Shown one piece after another: positions 386 through 6,047 of a DNA stretch of 64,000 nt; the first letter of the stretch is position 1, and every line of letters starts with the position of its first letter. A model generated the notes under the pieces. The model saw only the letters and a program-made list of their open reading frames with translations, did no database searches and was not told the DNA's origin. The stretch covers positions 1,088,001-1,152,000 of the forward strand of contig OZ244065.1 in NCBI GenBank assembly GCA_965215505.1, given 5' to 3'. A program made the translations under genes and the position numbers. This stretch comes from Capsulimonadaceae bacterium. Its GTDB lineage: Bacteria; Armatimonadota; Armatimonadia; Armatimonadales; Capsulimonadaceae.

Positions 386-955
386 CTATCCGCCGCCATA
401 GATTTCGGGCTTCAGGACGCCGATGTAAGGCAGGTTGCGGTACTTGCCGGCGTAGTCAAGGCCGTAGCCGACCACGAATCGGTCCTCGACTTTGAAGCCG
501 AAGTAGTCCACGGGGACGTCCACCCGCCGGCGCGAGGGCTTGTCCAGCAGGGTGCAGATCTTGACCGAGGCGGCGCGGCGCGAGCGCAGGTTCTCCAGCA
601 GGTAGGACAGCCGCAGCGTCAGGCCAGTGTCCACGATGTCCTCGACGACCAGGACGTGCTTGCTCTCGACGCTCTCGTCCAGGTCCTTCAGGATGCGGAC
701 GACGCCCGACGATTTAGTGTCCGCGCCGTAGGAGGAGACGGCGACGAAGTCGTAGGAGAGTGGGAGGGTGATCTGCCGGACCAAGTCGGCCATGAAGATG
801 TTGGCACCTTTCAGAATGCAGACCAGCATCAGCTCCTTGCCCGCGTAGTCCTGGGAGATCTGCGCCCCCATCTCGGCGACGCGGCGGGCAATCACTTCTT
901 CGCTCAGGAGGACCTGCTCGACGTCCTCCTCCATCTCCATTTCAACACTCGCCAT
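386..955 (-). CDS. hpt: Hypoxanthine phosphoribosyltransferase
   Basis: Motifs VCILKGA, VLVVEDIVDTGLTL and FVVGYGLDY...YRNLPYIG; ATG at 955 chosen. Confidence 0.95.
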   Translation of the reverse strand: MASVEMEMEEDVEQVLLSEEVIARRVAEMGAQISQDYAGKELMLVCILKGANIFMADLVRQITLPLSYDFVAVSSYGADTKSSGVVRILKDLDESVESKHVLVVEDIVDTGLTLRLSYLLENLRSRRAASVKICTLLDKPSRRRVDVPVDYFGFKVEDRFVVGYGLDYAGKYRNLPYIGVLKPEIYGGG

Positions 956-963
956 AAACGCAC

Positions 964-1734
964 TCAACCCCTCTGGCCGGCACCCGACAGGCGCAGCCGT
1001 ATCAGAAACTCATTCAGTGCCGCCCGGTTCGGCACTTCTTCCGGCAGCGGCGACGATTCGCGCGCCCCGTCCAGCCGCTCGAACAGCCCGGCGATGGCCC
1101 CGGTGAACGCCGCATCGTCACCCGCCACGTCCGCCTGCTCGCGCGTCTTCATCGCCAGCAGCGGGGCAAGGTCCAGCCCGAACCGCTCGTTCAGCCGATG
1201 CAGGTTCGCCTCGACGACGCCTTCGGTGAGAAGCACGATCCCGGTCATCAGGACGCGGTGCAGGTAGAGCAGTCGCTTGACCGTCTTCCCCACCCCAACC
1301 TTTTGATAATCCCGCCATTCGCCTCGCGCGAAACCCGCGTAGTGGTGGTACAGCTTTTTGCTCAATCCCGCCCGTGCCAGCGCAGCCAGCTCCTTATGCG
1401 CGGGCGAGGTCAGCACGACGAGCGGCGACAGGATCTGCTCCAGAACGTACCCGTTCGGCTTGACCAGCAGGCGCAGGTACTTGGCGACCTCGTGCCCGAC
1501 CAGCTCCACCTCGACGCCGCCGACTATCCCCTCCGGCTCCAATGTCTCGCGCGGCATGTCCAGCCCCAGCACATCGGGCAGCGGCGCGGCGAAGCTCCCG
1601 CGCAGGTCCACGTCGCTGTCGGGCGAGGGGAACCCGTAGAGGTGCGCCCCGCTGACCGTCACGAACAGCAGGCCGGGGACGTTTTGCTCGGCGTATCGGC
1701 GCAGGGCGTCATAATCCAGGTCAAGTGCGCTCAA
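964..1734 (-). CDS. Predicted nucleotidyltransferase (RlaP/YcgL-like, Pol-beta superfamily)
   Basis: Motif SGAHLYGFPSPDSDVDLRG and helical C-terminal domain. Confidence 0.8.
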   Translation of the reverse strand: MSALDLDYDALRRYAEQNVPGLLFVTVSGAHLYGFPSPDSDVDLRGSFAAPLPDVLGLDMPRETLEPEGIVGGVEVELVGHEVAKYLRLLVKPNGYVLEQILSPLVVLTSPAHKELAALARAGLSKKLYHHYAGFARGEWRDYQKVGVGKTVKRLLYLHRVLMTGIVLLTEGVVEANLHRLNERFGLDLAPLLAMKTREQADVAGDDAAFTGAIAGLFERLDGARESSPLPEEVPNRAALNEFLIRLRLSGAGQRG

Positions 1735-2030
1735 ATCTTTTGCATCCTACGGCGGCTGAACAGCCACCCGGAGAAGCCAAGAAAGTTGGCGAGCATCAGA
1801 AGGGTGAACAACAGACACAACCAGCGCAAAAGAGGCCAGCCAGCCCAAGCATTCTGGATGATGGCAGGAAATACGGCGCTCAGAAAGAGATAGGGCACCC
1901 ACAGCGTCAGGACGACGAGGTCAAAGAGACGCTGCCATTCTTTGCATCGAGTCGCTTTGGCCAGTACGACCGGTGTTAAGACAGCATAGAGGATGCCGAA
2001 GACGAGCATGACCCAGCGAAACCAGTCCAT
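1731..2030 (-). CDS. Small membrane protein
   Basis: About three hydrophobic segments; GGAAGG precedes the ATG at 2030; stop overlaps the next gene's start. Confidence 0.55.
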   Translation of the reverse strand: MDWFRWVMLVFGILYAVLTPVVLAKATRCKEWQRLFDLVVLTLWVPYLFLSAVFPAIIQNAWAGWPLLRWLCLLFTLLMLANFLGFSGWLFSRRRMQKI

Positions 2031-2059
2031 GTGTTTGCCTTCCTTCTTGGTCCCTTCAG

Positions 2060-2620
2060 CTACCGAAGCACCTGGCACTGGGCGGGGGGCCAGTAGCAGG
2101 CGACGGCCCTCCCGATGATGTCGTGGCGCGGCAGGTCGCCCCAGTAGCGGCTGTCGTCGGAGACGTCCCGGTTGTCTCCCATCACGAAATACTGACCGGG
2201 CGGGACCGCCTGGGCCGGCATGTCGCCGTGGGCGGCGAAGGCTTTGTACGGCTCCGGGAGCGGCCTGCCGTTGATGGACACTGCCCCATCCCGGATGGCG
2301 ACGGTTTCGCCGGGCAGGCCGATGACGCGCTTGACGTAGACCTGGCGGACGTCTCTGGGGTAGTCGAAGATCACGATGTCACCGCGCTTGGGCGATGCCA
2401 AACGGTAGGCCAGCTTGTTCGCCAAAACGCGCTCACCCGTATAGAGATGCGGCTGCATGCAGTCGCCCGCGACGCAGAAGCCCTGCATGACGAACAGGGT
2501 CGTGGCGACGGCCAGCAGGAACCCCAGCAAGACCTGTTCCCACTGCGTGATCGTGACCGACCGCCGGGGGCGCGTCTTTAGGAAGTGCTTCGTCATCCGT
2601 GCGGTGAGCAGAGGTGTCAT
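2060..2620 (-). CDS. lepB: Signal peptidase I (S26) homolog with Cys at the nucleophile position
   Basis: One TM segment; box B GDCMQPHL, box C RGDIVIF, box D YVKRVIGLPGE, box E MGDNR..SDDSR.WG. Confidence 0.88.
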   Translation of the reverse strand: MTPLLTARMTKHFLKTRPRRSVTITQWEQVLLGFLLAVATTLFVMQGFCVAGDCMQPHLYTGERVLANKLAYRLASPKRGDIVIFDYPRDVRQVYVKRVIGLPGETVAIRDGAVSINGRPLPEPYKAFAAHGDMPAQAVPPGQYFVMGDNRDVSDDSRYWGDLPRHDIIGRAVACYWPPAQCQVLR

Positions 2621-2749: not shown

Positions 2750-4741
2750 TTACTTTATCGGCTTCAGCACCAGGGCATCCAGGCCGAACAGGGTATTAGT
2801 CGCGGCCTCGTTTTTGCCGTGGATGGTGACGGCGAGGCGGCTGGGGCCGGGGGGCAGGGTGACGCGGCCCAGTGCGACCGGACCGCTGGGGACGACGCCG
2901 GCATGGTAGGCATCGTAGACGCCGCCGACGGGCTTGCCGTCGAGTGTGAAGGTGAACCGGCCATAGTCGGCGGCCTGGGTGAAGTAGGCGACGAGATCGA
3001 AAGTGCCGGGCCGGGGCGGCAGGGTCAGGGTCAAAGTGTCGCCGGCCTTGCCGCCCGTCCACCAGAGCTGACCGTCGCCGCTCCAGGCCCCTTCAAAGCC
3101 GCCCATGTCCTGCGTCTGGACCTTGCCCGCCGAGGCGACTGCGGTGGCGGCCAGCGCCTCGCCCTCGATGGGGTCCTTCAAGGTCAGGACGGAGGCCGCG
3201 CGGGGGTTCAGGGGCGGCCCGACCTGGCCCGCTGCCGGAGTAACAGACCAGGGCTGGGTCGGCCCCGAGGCGTACCAATAGGCGACGGACGAATAGTAGG
3301 TGTCCGGGGCGTCGTTCGCGCCCCCATGTTCAATCTGGGCGTCGAGGGAGCGTTGGAAGACGGGCGCGTCGTTAAGGAACCAGCGATAGGCGTTGATCCG
3401 GCCGGTCCCGCCGGACTGGTCCTTGACTAATGCGCCGTTGACGGGGAGGGCGTTCGGCCCTTTGTCGAAGTACCAGCCGCTGTTGAAGCAGTCCTCGGTG
3501 CCGGTGCCGTTCCACGGCCCGATCAGGGTCGTCGGGACGAGGCTCGCGCCCCACGGCTGGGCGTCCGCCCGGAACTGCTCGTCGCCTTCCAGGAAGCCCA
3601 GCCCGCGCGCCCCGGCCATCGTCTGCACGACGCCGACGAAGTGGCCACGCTGTCCCCGCGCCCGTGTCCAGACGTGGGGCAGGCCGCGCTTCGTCACCTC
3701 CTGCGACCACTGGGCGTGGAAGTAGCCGGTTTCTGCGGCGCGGAACGGCTGATGCACCATGACCGCATTCCAGGCGACGACGACATTCTTTCCCAGGCCG
3801 TTCTCGACCGTGAACCGGGCCGAGCGCGCGAACGGCATGGGGAAGCGCGACTGCATCACCCCGGCCTCCGTCTGGCTCAGGAGCAGGGAGGTGAAGGCTT
3901 TGTGGCCGTAACCGCTGCCGAAGAAGTCGGCGACCGGGGCCTCGATGTCTGGCGTCTGGTGGCCGTCGAAGTACCCCCGCAGGACCAGCCGGCGCAGGTC
4001 AATGCCCGTCGGCGCGGCGAACTCCAGCGAGCGGATCACGCCCGGCCCCTGGAAGTGGTCAATCTCGCGCGTCTTGCCTGTGAGGAGCGCGACCGACCAC
4101 GTTCGGCCCGGCACGGGAGCGCCAGTGCCTGCCGACGACCAGGCGTGGACGGCGGCCTGGAGCGCGGCCCGGTCGGCATCGGTCAGCGGCAGCGCGAACG
4201 GTCGGATCGGCGTATTCGCGGCGAGCGTCAGCGAGTTCACCTGATAGTACAGCCCGTGCGGGTCGTCCACGGTGATGCGGCAATGCTTGGCGTAGGGGAT
4301 GGGCAGGTAGGAGTAGAAGCCGCCGGACGAGCCCTGGGTCAGCGGCGGCACGAAACCCGGTTGGGAGCCGTCGAACAGCCTGGCGAACGGCACGTCAATG
4401 ACCGGCGCGGGGGCGTCGTCAATGTAGACCTTGAGCTGACCGTTCGGATTGGCGGACCACAGCCGGACGACCGCGCCCGGCCCGGCGAGGTCGGCAAGAG
4501 TCGCCGTCGTGCCGGTCATAACGGGGAAAGTCTGGAAGTCGCCGTTGCCGCCGGTGCGGTCATAGGACGATTGCAGGTTCGAGGCCCAGTCCCGGAGATG
4601 CGGCAGCCGGGTGAGGTCCGTTTCCTCGCGCAGCAGCGTGTCCACGCCGACAGGGGCTGGGACAGGCGGGGACGCGGAGCGGGCAGGCAGCAAGGGCAGG
4701 AGGAGCGTGAGCAGCCCGAGGGTGGCGAGGGAGTTCCGCAT
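2750..4741 (-). CDS. Secreted DUF2961 (GH172-like) glycoside hydrolase with C-terminal carbohydrate-binding-like domain
   Basis: Signal peptide; motifs SSYDRTGGNGD, FLEGDE, GTGTEDCFNSGWY and YSSVAYWY. Confidence 0.8.
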   Translation of the reverse strand: MRNSLATLGLLTLLLPLLPARSASPPVPAPVGVDTLLREETDLTRLPHLRDWASNLQSSYDRTGGNGDFQTFPVMTGTTATLADLAGPGAVVRLWSANPNGQLKVYIDDAPAPVIDVPFARLFDGSQPGFVPPLTQGSSGGFYSYLPIPYAKHCRITVDDPHGLYYQVNSLTLAANTPIRPFALPLTDADRAALQAAVHAWSSAGTGAPVPGRTWSVALLTGKTREIDHFQGPGVIRSLEFAAPTGIDLRRLVLRGYFDGHQTPDIEAPVADFFGSGYGHKAFTSLLLSQTEAGVMQSRFPMPFARSARFTVENGLGKNVVVAWNAVMVHQPFRAAETGYFHAQWSQEVTKRGLPHVWTRARGQRGHFVGVVQTMAGARGLGFLEGDEQFRADAQPWGASLVPTTLIGPWNGTGTEDCFNSGWYFDKGPNALPVNGALVKDQSGGTGRINAYRWFLNDAPVFQRSLDAQIEHGGANDAPDTYYSSVAYWYASGPTQPWSVTPAAGQVGPPLNPRAASVLTLKDPIEGEALAATAVASAGKVQTQDMGGFEGAWSGDGQLWWTGGKAGDTLTLTLPPRPGTFDLVAYFTQAADYGRFTFTLDGKPVGGVYDAYHAGVVPSGPVALGRVTLPPGPSRLAVTIHGKNEAATNTLFGLDALVLKPIK

Positions 4742-4878: not shown

Positions 4879-5595
4879 TCACAAAAGCTCACTCAGGTCG
4901 GCATCGCCGATGGGGACGCCGCTGACCTTGCGCTTGATGCGGGCGAGGGCGTTATCCACGCTCTTGGTCTTGCAGCGCAGCTCGGAGGCGATCTCGCGGT
5001 AGGACTTACCGAGCTGATAGCCGGACAGGACGTGCCATTCGAAGTCGGAGAGCATCTGCTGCAAGGTTTCGTGGAGGATCTTGGTGTCCTCATTCCGCAG
5101 GACCATGTCCTCGGGGTCGGCCCCGTCGAGGTTCGGCAGGATGTCGGAGAGGTTCCAGTCGGTGGTGGGGTCTTCGGAGGGGCTTTCGAGCGAGAGCGAC
5201 TGGTTCAGGGGCATCTGCTTCTGTCGCGTGGCCGTCTTGATGGCGGTGATGATGTGGCGGGTGATGCAGACCTTGGCGAAGGCGGGGAAGGAGATGGCCT
5301 TGTCGGCCCGGAAGTCAATGATGGCCTGCCACAGCCCGATCTGGCCGACTTGCAGGAGGTCTTCCTTTTCCGCGCCGACGAGGAAATAGGATTTGACCTT
5401 GGTGCGGACGAGGTTGCGGTACTTGTAGAGCATGTACTCGGCGGCGGCGTTCTCGCCGCGCTGGGCGCGCGAGACGATCTCCCGGTCGGCCATGTCGGCG
5501 TATTTGAGCTGGGACTGACGCAGGCGGTCGGAGATGTCGTTGACGATGCTCCAGTCGCTGGATTGGGTTCTGATCAAGGGGAGCCTCACTGGCAC
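4879..5595 (-). CDS. sigH: RNA polymerase sigma factor, SigH/Spo0H type
   Basis: YFLVGAEKEDLLQ, CITRHIITAIKTATRQKQMPLN and KSVDNALARIKRK match SigH; start codon uncertain. Confidence 0.88.
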   Translation of the reverse strand: MPVRLPLIRTQSSDWSIVNDISDRLRQSQLKYADMADREIVSRAQRGENAAAEYMLYKYRNLVRTKVKSYFLVGAEKEDLLQVGQIGLWQAIIDFRADKAISFPAFAKVCITRHIITAIKTATRQKQMPLNQSLSLESPSEDPTTDWNLSDILPNLDGADPEDMVLRNEDTKILHETLQQMLSDFEWHVLSGYQLGKSYREIASELRCKTKSVDNALARIKRKVSGVPIGDADLSELL

Positions 5596-5738: not shown

Positions 5739-6047
5739 TCAGCGAGACGGCTCGTGATCCACTTCGATGGTCAGGGTGCTGATGATGACCGCCAGCAGGA
5801 CCAGCGCCATCGTGGCTGCGGTCGTGAGGGGGCTAACGGGGATCTCTTTGATGACGTGATTGCCCAGTCTGAGGCGCAGGGCGCGCACCTTGCTGGTGCC
5901 GGTGATACGCTGGACCTGGCCGAAGAGGTCCACCCCCAGGCTTAACAGGTTGGCGGCGGGAACATTACCTTGCATGATTGCATCCTCGGGTGCGACAGCA
6001 TTTCGGCCCCCTCCAGGGTCTTGGGACAAGGAGGAAGCCGCTCGCAT
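5739..6047 (-). CDS. Small DUF4342-like protein, probably leaderless
   Basis: VRALRLRLGNHVIKEIPVS, a hydrophobic helix and TIEV resemble DUF4342; alternative start at 5975. Confidence 0.55.
   Translation of the reverse strand: MRAASSLSQDPGGGRNAVAPEDAIMQGNVPAANLLSLGVDLFGQVQRITGTSKVRALRLRLGNHVIKEIPVSPLTTAATMALVLLAVIISTLTIEVDHEPSR

Follow-up and report, generated by a model that had tools for sequence, protein, structure and literature searches.

Type I signal peptidases are the standard example of a Ser-Lys dyad and, to our knowledge, the entire S24/S26 clan is regarded as serine-type. A thiol version has been made in the laboratory: Escherichia coli leader peptidase engineered to carry Ser90Cys is said, in literature of the early 1990s, to keep its processing activity and to become sensitive to thiol reagents. 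The S26 fold can also serve without catalysis. SipA (Spy0127), encoded in a pilus locus of Streptococcus pyogenes, has lost the nucleophile Ser, the Lys and the residues that correspond to Gly272 and Ser278 of E. coli, and carries Asp and Gly at the dyad and Asn and Arg at the other two positions, according to the accessible part of its description (PMC4049620). The same part states that, in the E. coli enzyme, Gly272 adjoins the catalytic Lys and Ser278 holds it. In the accessible part of a genome paper on an Armatimonadetes isolate, signal peptidases appear only as a count of four signal peptidase I genes (PMC4072686), and a literature search that took in few subscription journals and was made without MEROPS returned no published description of a natural Cys form of signal peptidase I.

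Here we analyse a gene from a 64,000-nucleotide stretch of a Capsulimonadaceae genome (the window) that encodes a signal peptidase I homologue with Cys at the position of the nucleophile Ser. Its sequence makes it likely, in our judgement, that the product is an active accessory type I signal peptidase which uses the Cys thiol as nucleophile and Lys as base, alongside Ser-Lys enzymes of the same cell.

Results

The gene occupies 2060..2620 on the minus strand as an open reading frame of 186 aa with an ATG start (P0001). Its product matches the Pfam family Peptidase_S26 (PF10502) over residues 29-177 with an E value of 1.6e-47 and 162 bits (cut-off 22.9), and the NCBIfam model TIGR02227 (sigpep_I_bact) with 154.9 bits (cut-off 47). 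The archaeal/ER-type S26B model TIGR02228 scores 18.2 bits, under its cut-off of 51.85, and the base position holds Lys rather than His. When the protein is aligned by HMMER with solved structures of the E. coli enzyme (1b12, 1kn9, 1t7d and 9nlo; about 89 bits), C54 pairs with the second Ser of IPSGSMMPTL, K97 with the Lys of YIKR and box E, GDNRDVSDDSRYWG, with GDNRDNSADSRYWG.

Box B reads VAGDCMQPHL (residues 50-59; 2444..2473, minus strand), with TGC as codon 54 (2459..2461, bases 2461-2459 read on the minus strand) placing Cys54 where E. coli has Ser90. Box C, RGDIVIF (residues 79-85, minus strand), is intact. Box D, YVKRVIG (residues 95-101), supplies Lys97, encoded by AAG at 2330..2332 (minus strand), at the general-base position of E. 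coli Lys145; box E (residues 148-161; 2138..2179, minus strand) supplies G148 and S154 as the equivalents of Gly272 and Ser278. Translation and the E. coli alignment thus bear out the preliminary description of this DNA, which had reported the Cys-containing box B with TGC at 2461-2459, the Lys of YVKRVIG and intact boxes C and E.

Hydropathy and the structural model described below place an N-terminal membrane anchor at about residues 22-48 (2477..2557, minus strand). The best 19-residue Kyte-Doolittle window spans residues 30-48 (mean 2.09), and residues 1-26, ahead of this peak, contain six K/R and no D/E. By the positive-inside rule, the predicted topology is N-in, with the catalytic domain outside the cytoplasmic membrane. 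The protein accordingly has the S26 catalytic domain in sequence (PF10502, TIGR02227) and fold (Foldseek), the general-base Lys, the box E Gly and Ser and, with its orientation predicted in this way, the N-terminal anchor with an external catalytic domain that characterize S26A enzymes; at the nucleophile it has Cys54 instead of Ser. As the family is defined as one of serine peptidases, we treat the protein as a variant rather than a standard member.

An AlphaFold2 model generated from an alignment of 32 diverse members of the Cys clade (A1) has a mean pLDDT of 82.5 and a pTM of 0.74. It shows a helix at residues 22-44 followed by a beta-rich domain; the block of residues 51-60, which contains the nucleophile loop, has a mean pLDDT of only 75. 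The top Foldseek matches of the model are E. coli signal peptidase I (E 1.5e-08) and Staphylococcus aureus SpsB, with E values for the two of about 1.5e-08 to 3.5e-08; SpsB superposes on about 152 columns with an rmsd of 3.4-3.6 Å. Matches to SipA and to the LexA/UmuD fold rank lower.

Conservation of the Cys was examined using P0001 as query against 41 genomes of relatives, with orthologues defined by E ≤ 7e-83. Orthologues were found in 24 of the 41 genomes, namely the window's own, 22 of the 23 other genus members and one genome of a sister genus; the sole genus member without one is represented by a genome that is 75% complete. All 24 orthologues have Cys at the aligned position, encoded by TGT in 17 and TGC in 7. 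Compared with the window gene, dN/dS (Nei-Gojobori) is 0.07-0.28 in 22 of 23 pairs, and in the remaining pair dS is saturated. Among the query and its best 120 metagenomic matches, Cys is present in all 119 sequences that cover the column (two end before it) and Lys97 is kept in 120 of 121. These comparisons of orthologues, codons, substitution rates and metagenomic homologues indicate that Cys54 is under selection.

Support for the TGC codon was found in four public sequencing runs from four studies (X1, X4, X6 and X7), whose contigs over 2459-2461 contain no other letter; the source sample may be among them, as the best holder, and the four need not all be independent. In run X7, the bins at 2218-2291 are without cover. 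Several short 'skip' joints of related organisms' contigs also occur. The preliminary description had proposed aligning homologues to learn whether the Cys is conserved in a clade, inspecting the support for TGC, and taking Ser in all close orthologues as evidence against a natural Cys enzyme. The close orthologues carry Cys without exception, no alternative letter appears in the contigs of the four runs, and conservation extends from the 24 orthologues and 119 metagenomic homologues to 45 of 45 members of the phylum-wide clade described below.

Three other readings of the conserved Cys and its surroundings were considered and rejected. A regulatory Cys49-Cys54 disulfide would not be general, given that only 84 of 119 sequences have Cys at position 49, where 25 have Arg and 7 have Trp, and that this position is unconserved in A1. 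A lipobox around Cys54 is contradicted by the residue at -1, which is variable and often charged (Arg in 14, Asp in 5 and Glu in 3 of 54 rows). His58, four residues after the Cys, was rejected as a general Cys-His partner. His at +4 of box B is found in 112 of 120 Capsulimonadaceae-like homologues and is a trait of that subclade only: in the wider Cys clade Asn predominates (36 of 54 rows), and His accounts for 6 rows and Thr for 4. Among the Ser rows, 12 of 78 have Asn at this position, and Ser types mostly have Thr.

Two further cysteines, Cys175 and Cys182 (ACYWPPxxC; 2075-2098 of the window, minus strand), are found as a pair in 91 of the 121 close homologues, and the wider clade lacks them. 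They probably form a lineage-specific disulfide in the last hairpin.

We then surveyed Armatimonadota at large in a sample of 301 genomes, using a divergent Cys-type representative as query (E ≤ 1e-25), and 76 genomes matched. Seventy matched places were read: the 30 returned loci were all Cys, and the 40 other stretches comprised 15 Cys and 25 Ser. In total, at least 46 of the 301 genomes, from 10 families, have a verified Cys form (45 read in this sample plus one genus member read earlier), with Lys97 and an intact box E in every one. In public records, these Cys-type proteins are named plainly 'signal peptidase I'.

Residues invariant in A1 are G52, C54, M55, P57, G62, R64, D81, F85, P88, K97, R98, G104, V146, G148, D149, R151, S154, D156, S157, R158 and G161. 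The box B signature of the Cys clade is G-x-C-M-E-P-[N/H/T]-L. With K97, G148, S154, D156 and R158 all invariant and box B otherwise canonical (G-x-C-M-x-P-x-L), it is the nucleophile alone that differs.

Occurrence within the phylum is patchy. In the sister family f2, no Cys form was found in any of 16 genomes (best P0001 match at E 1e-18), and all six loci read there are Ser; it was likewise not found in 6 of 18 other genomes of family f1 in the phylum sample. Its lack in f2 and part of f1 implies that the gene is dispensable.

To place the Cys form more widely, we combined several searches. Searched exhaustively with phmmer, a set of 1.84 billion cluster representatives yielded 61,245 matches; among the best 150 of these the nucleophile position is Cys in 17 and Ser in 126, three lack the column and the rest have Ala, Thr or Ile. 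Scanning species-representative genomes with a degenerate box-B DNA motif located 101 stretches; among the 80 of these that were listed, at least 30 are true Cys-type S26 genes, and the 50 others, with no S26 match, were taken as chance. The 30 listed Cys-type loci comprise 24 of Armatimonadota type (16 labelled Armatimonadota/Chthonomonadales), 5 from Dehalococcoidia and 1 from Saccharibacteria. One more Dehalococcoidales case came from an alignment-query locus search. In that search, the 86 box-B alignments among the matches listed were 85 Ser and 1 Cys; in a protein-query locus search, 86 such alignments among the matches listed were 82 Ser, 2 Cys and 2 Gly. Outside the Armatimonadota, Dehalococcoidia and Saccharibacteria lineages, the Cys form is rare in two broad samples.

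These searches also turned up S26 proteins altered in other ways. In the Dehalococcoidia/Saccharibacteria Cys variants at loci L197, L309 and L337, the Lys-holding Ser of box E is replaced by Ala (GDNRNNANDSH, GDNRNVAYDSH and GDNRPQAFDSR), a second active-site change. Two Ktedonobacteria S26 copies have Gly at the nucleophile position (L040 5289-5768, from a Dictyobacter vulcani record, and L106 321-788; YRVDEPGMQPGL and YSVNDPGMTPAL), and the L040 copy adjoins a second S26 gene. A further protein, P0122 (291 aa), has two tandem S26 domains with Ala and Ile at the nucleophile positions and is probably a non-catalytic duplicate.

A phylogenetic tree was constructed from 133 catalytic domains (55 Cys and 78 Ser) over 143 columns with a short IQ-TREE search. 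The Armatimonadota Cys forms make up one group of 43 rows, all Cys, with an SH-aLRT support of 96. This group adjoins a mixed Chloroflexota/Patescibacteria group, within which the Dehalococcoidia and Saccharibacteria Cys forms lie among Ser forms. The tree can be labelled with as few as five changes between Ser and Cys, and the starred branches force at least four; with a short alignment and many open forks, the exact number of switches is soft. A single origin of all Cys forms is not what the tree shows, and the Armatimonadota Cys clade is old.

The gene order around the peptidase gene was compared across the same genomes. On the minus strand of the window, the order is a cvpA-like gene (PF02674), a DUF4342-like small ORF (5739-6047; weak match, E 0.093), a SigH-like sigma-70 family factor (4879..5595; NF006148, 233.1 bits, cut-off 208), a DUF2961 protein of 663 aa with a signal-like N-terminus (2750..4741; PF11175, E 2.6e-60), the peptidase, a small hydrophobic membrane ORF (1731..2033/2078; no family match), an RlaP-family gene (964..1734; PF10127, E 2.9e-39) and hpt (386..967; TIGR01203, 225.6 bits). 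The DUF4342-like ORF lies directly upstream of the sigma gene. It is preceded by a promoter-like site, TTGACG-17-TATAAT, at 6082-6054 (minus strand; 11 of 12 consensus matches), and no terminator-like site was found on the minus strand from there until 235-218, just past hpt, both sites being consensus matches only. We know of no sporulation in Armatimonadota, yet the sigma factor exceeds the cut-off of the sporulation SigH model.

The membrane ORF, RlaP gene and hpt are closely spaced or overlap by 2 nt, which makes their cotranscription with the peptidase gene plausible on sequence grounds. The preliminary description had proposed this set. Its named downstream genes are present and close or overlapping as described, although the small membrane ORF is unconserved at orthologous loci: within 1.5-kb flanks of 23 other orthologous loci, we counted sigma at 16, RlaP at 17, hpt at 13, DUF2961 at 3 and the small membrane ORF at 2. 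The insertion of DUF2961 between sigma and peptidase is confined to the window's genome and L009-L011.

A neighbour that recurs across the phylum raises a rival explanation, in which the peptidase is a dedicated processing or regulatory protease tied to the SigH-like sigma factor, for example as the site-1 protease of a membrane-bound inhibitor, possibly gated by thiol redox state. Precedent exists: the anti-sigma factors RsiV and RsiP undergo site-1 cleavage by signal peptidases, as the accessible parts of two reports have it (PMC4183432, PMC8844934). An upstream sigma gene on the same strand is present at 24 of 30 phylum-sample loci and 17 of 24 Armatimonadota-type motif-scan loci (sets that overlap in part), besides the 16 of 23 orthologous loci, and in the window the promoter-like site precedes the DUF4342-like ORF and sigma gene with no terminator-like site before 235. 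The distribution of the two genes argues against such a tie, however. The sigma factor is far commoner than the peptidase, being present in 153 of 301 genomes (E ≤ 1e-60) that include families without the peptidase (f2, 14 of 14; f8, 17 of 17), and in eight peptidase-less genomes no S26 gene was found within about 4 kb downstream of it. Conversely, no sigma match at E ≤ 1e-60 was obtained from two family-f3 genomes that have the Cys form, and none of the six non-Armatimonadota Cys forms has a sigma neighbour. In family f15 (L303 2895-6424; L288, L312 and L322 likewise), the peptidase gene is flanked by the genes of the two glycyl-tRNA synthetase subunits, with glyQ between sigma and peptidase and glyS after the peptidase, a placement that looks like conserved housekeeping gene order. 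The DUF4342 neighbour, for its part, has no sizeable part past its C-terminal hydrophobic stretch. We therefore consider a dedicated sigma-linked protease improbable. The wider spread of the sigma factor, together with the lack of a nearby S26 gene in the eight genomes, points instead to conserved gene order, possibly with co-expression, and to a sigma factor that is independent of the peptidase.

Sigma identity is 65-96% phylum-wide at loci where that of the peptidase is about 45-55%. Relatives of the DUF4342-like ORF were seen at L274 4941-5315 (E 4.3e-06) and L340 5448-5813; their proteins have a UBA-like N-terminus and, at the other end, a hydrophobic stretch and then an acidic tail. A literature search, thin in subscription journals, found no mention of DUF4342. 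Its protein could be a partner of the sigma factor.

Finally, we asked which other signal peptidases accompany the Cys form. The preliminary description had suggested looking for a separate Ser-type lepB, and the window's genome has two in tandem. Each is a canonical enzyme some 340 aa long, one bearing PSPSMEPTL and the other PSASMEPTL, and both have the Lys and box E. They lie at about 586,000-590,000 of G000:C1 (L002 and L003), and in both a long insert separates box D from box E. A third S26 homologue in this genome, of 159 aa, has GPSMSPTY and LIKRIA (L006 1255-1734, minus strand); its gene is flanked by what we take, from the translations, to be threonine-synthase-like and SAICAR-synthase-like genes. 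Each of five other Cys-bearing Armatimonadota genomes (99-100% complete) encodes at least one Ser-type PSxSM enzyme. The canonical Ser type hence coexists with the Cys form in all six Armatimonadota genomes checked, which implies that general secretion does not need the Cys-type gene. Among five Dehalococcoidia assemblies, three have both types and in two the Cys form is the sole S26 match (1.0 and 1.2 Mb; completeness not given), a hint that it can be a cell's sole signal peptidase.

Discussion

The window protein has the fold and the one N-terminal anchor of S26A enzymes, among them LepB of E. coli, SpsB of S. aureus and the short peptidases of Bacillus type, along with their boxes B-E, their general-base Lys and the Gly and Ser of box E, and its Gly at -2 is that of short Gram-positive-type signal peptidases. 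It differs from them in its Cys nucleophile, in the +4 residue, which is His in the window's family and mostly Asn in the wider clade where S26A enzymes mostly have Thr, and in being an accessory paralogue beside Ser-type enzymes. With the engineered Ser90Cys enzyme it shares the same Cys-Lys arrangement in the same fold, and that mutant, with its reported activity, sets a precedent for preprotein processing by such a dyad. In contrast to the laboratory mutant, the window protein belongs to a lineage that occurs in nature and that selection has maintained across a phylum.

We read this lineage as active Cys-Lys peptidases because only the nucleophile has changed, its Lys partners are kept, purifying selection is strong and the clade is old and its change recurrent. 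It counts against this reading that other serine proteases usually make poor amidases in their thiol versions. In the mechanism we propose, one N-terminal transmembrane helix would anchor the peptidase, with the catalytic domain facing the outside of the cytoplasmic membrane. Lys97, positioned by Ser154 of box E, would act as the general base, and the Cys54 thiolate would attack the scissile bond of a signal-peptide-like substrate held in the conserved S1/S3 cleft. A thioester acyl-enzyme would form and then be hydrolysed by water. Since it would work beside two canonical Ser-Lys signal peptidases in the same genome, we regard it as accessory, probably serving particular substrates or conditions of its own; redox state could be one such condition.

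A more adventurous proposal, which we rate as quite improbable, is that the thiol is kept for chemistry that Ser cannot perform. The thioester might be resolved by an amine, as in a sortase-like transpeptidase built on the signal-peptidase scaffold that attaches or cyclises cleaved proteins, or the thiol might be a redox switch through which the oxidation state of the envelope would start and stop processing. If either were true, Armatimonadota would possess a second, chemically distinct branch of export processing.

The absence of the defining Ser, in an S26 fold, also recalls SipA. The preliminary description had left the choice between a thiol peptidase and a non-catalytic, SipA-like chaperone that binds peptides and has lost peptidase activity. 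SipA demonstrates that the fold can serve in this way, within the accessible part of its description (PMC4049620), and its structure (4n31) matches our model with a Foldseek TMt of 0.77. Yet all the positions that this source gives as lost in SipA, other than the Ser, are invariant in A1, as are D156 and R158, and the Ser is replaced by Cys every time (119 of 119 and 45 of 45 sequences). The gene context is unrelated: pilin and sortase genes are absent, and the neighbours are sigma, DUF2961, RlaP and hpt. The window protein also aligns to SipA with 39.8 bits, whereas its alignment with the E. coli enzyme scores about 89 bits. On these sequence comparisons, a chaperone of this kind seems very unlikely, and the thiol-peptidase alternative is favoured. 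As for a sequencing or assembly error or a strain-private mutation, for which a TGC one base from the Ser codons AGC and TCC would give an opening, we dismiss it, because all 24 orthologues have Cys and use both of its codons, the contigs of four runs show only TGC and the clade is conserved phylum-wide.

A natural Cys-Lys dyad lineage of signal peptidases, conserved across one phylum and re-invented in at least two others, amounts to a ready-made natural experiment in nucleophile exchange in a dyad protease. Thiol reagents, oxidants and signal-peptidase inhibitors should affect its members differently from the Ser enzymes. Where one genome encodes both types, the question arises of what the thiol enzyme does beyond the serine enzymes.
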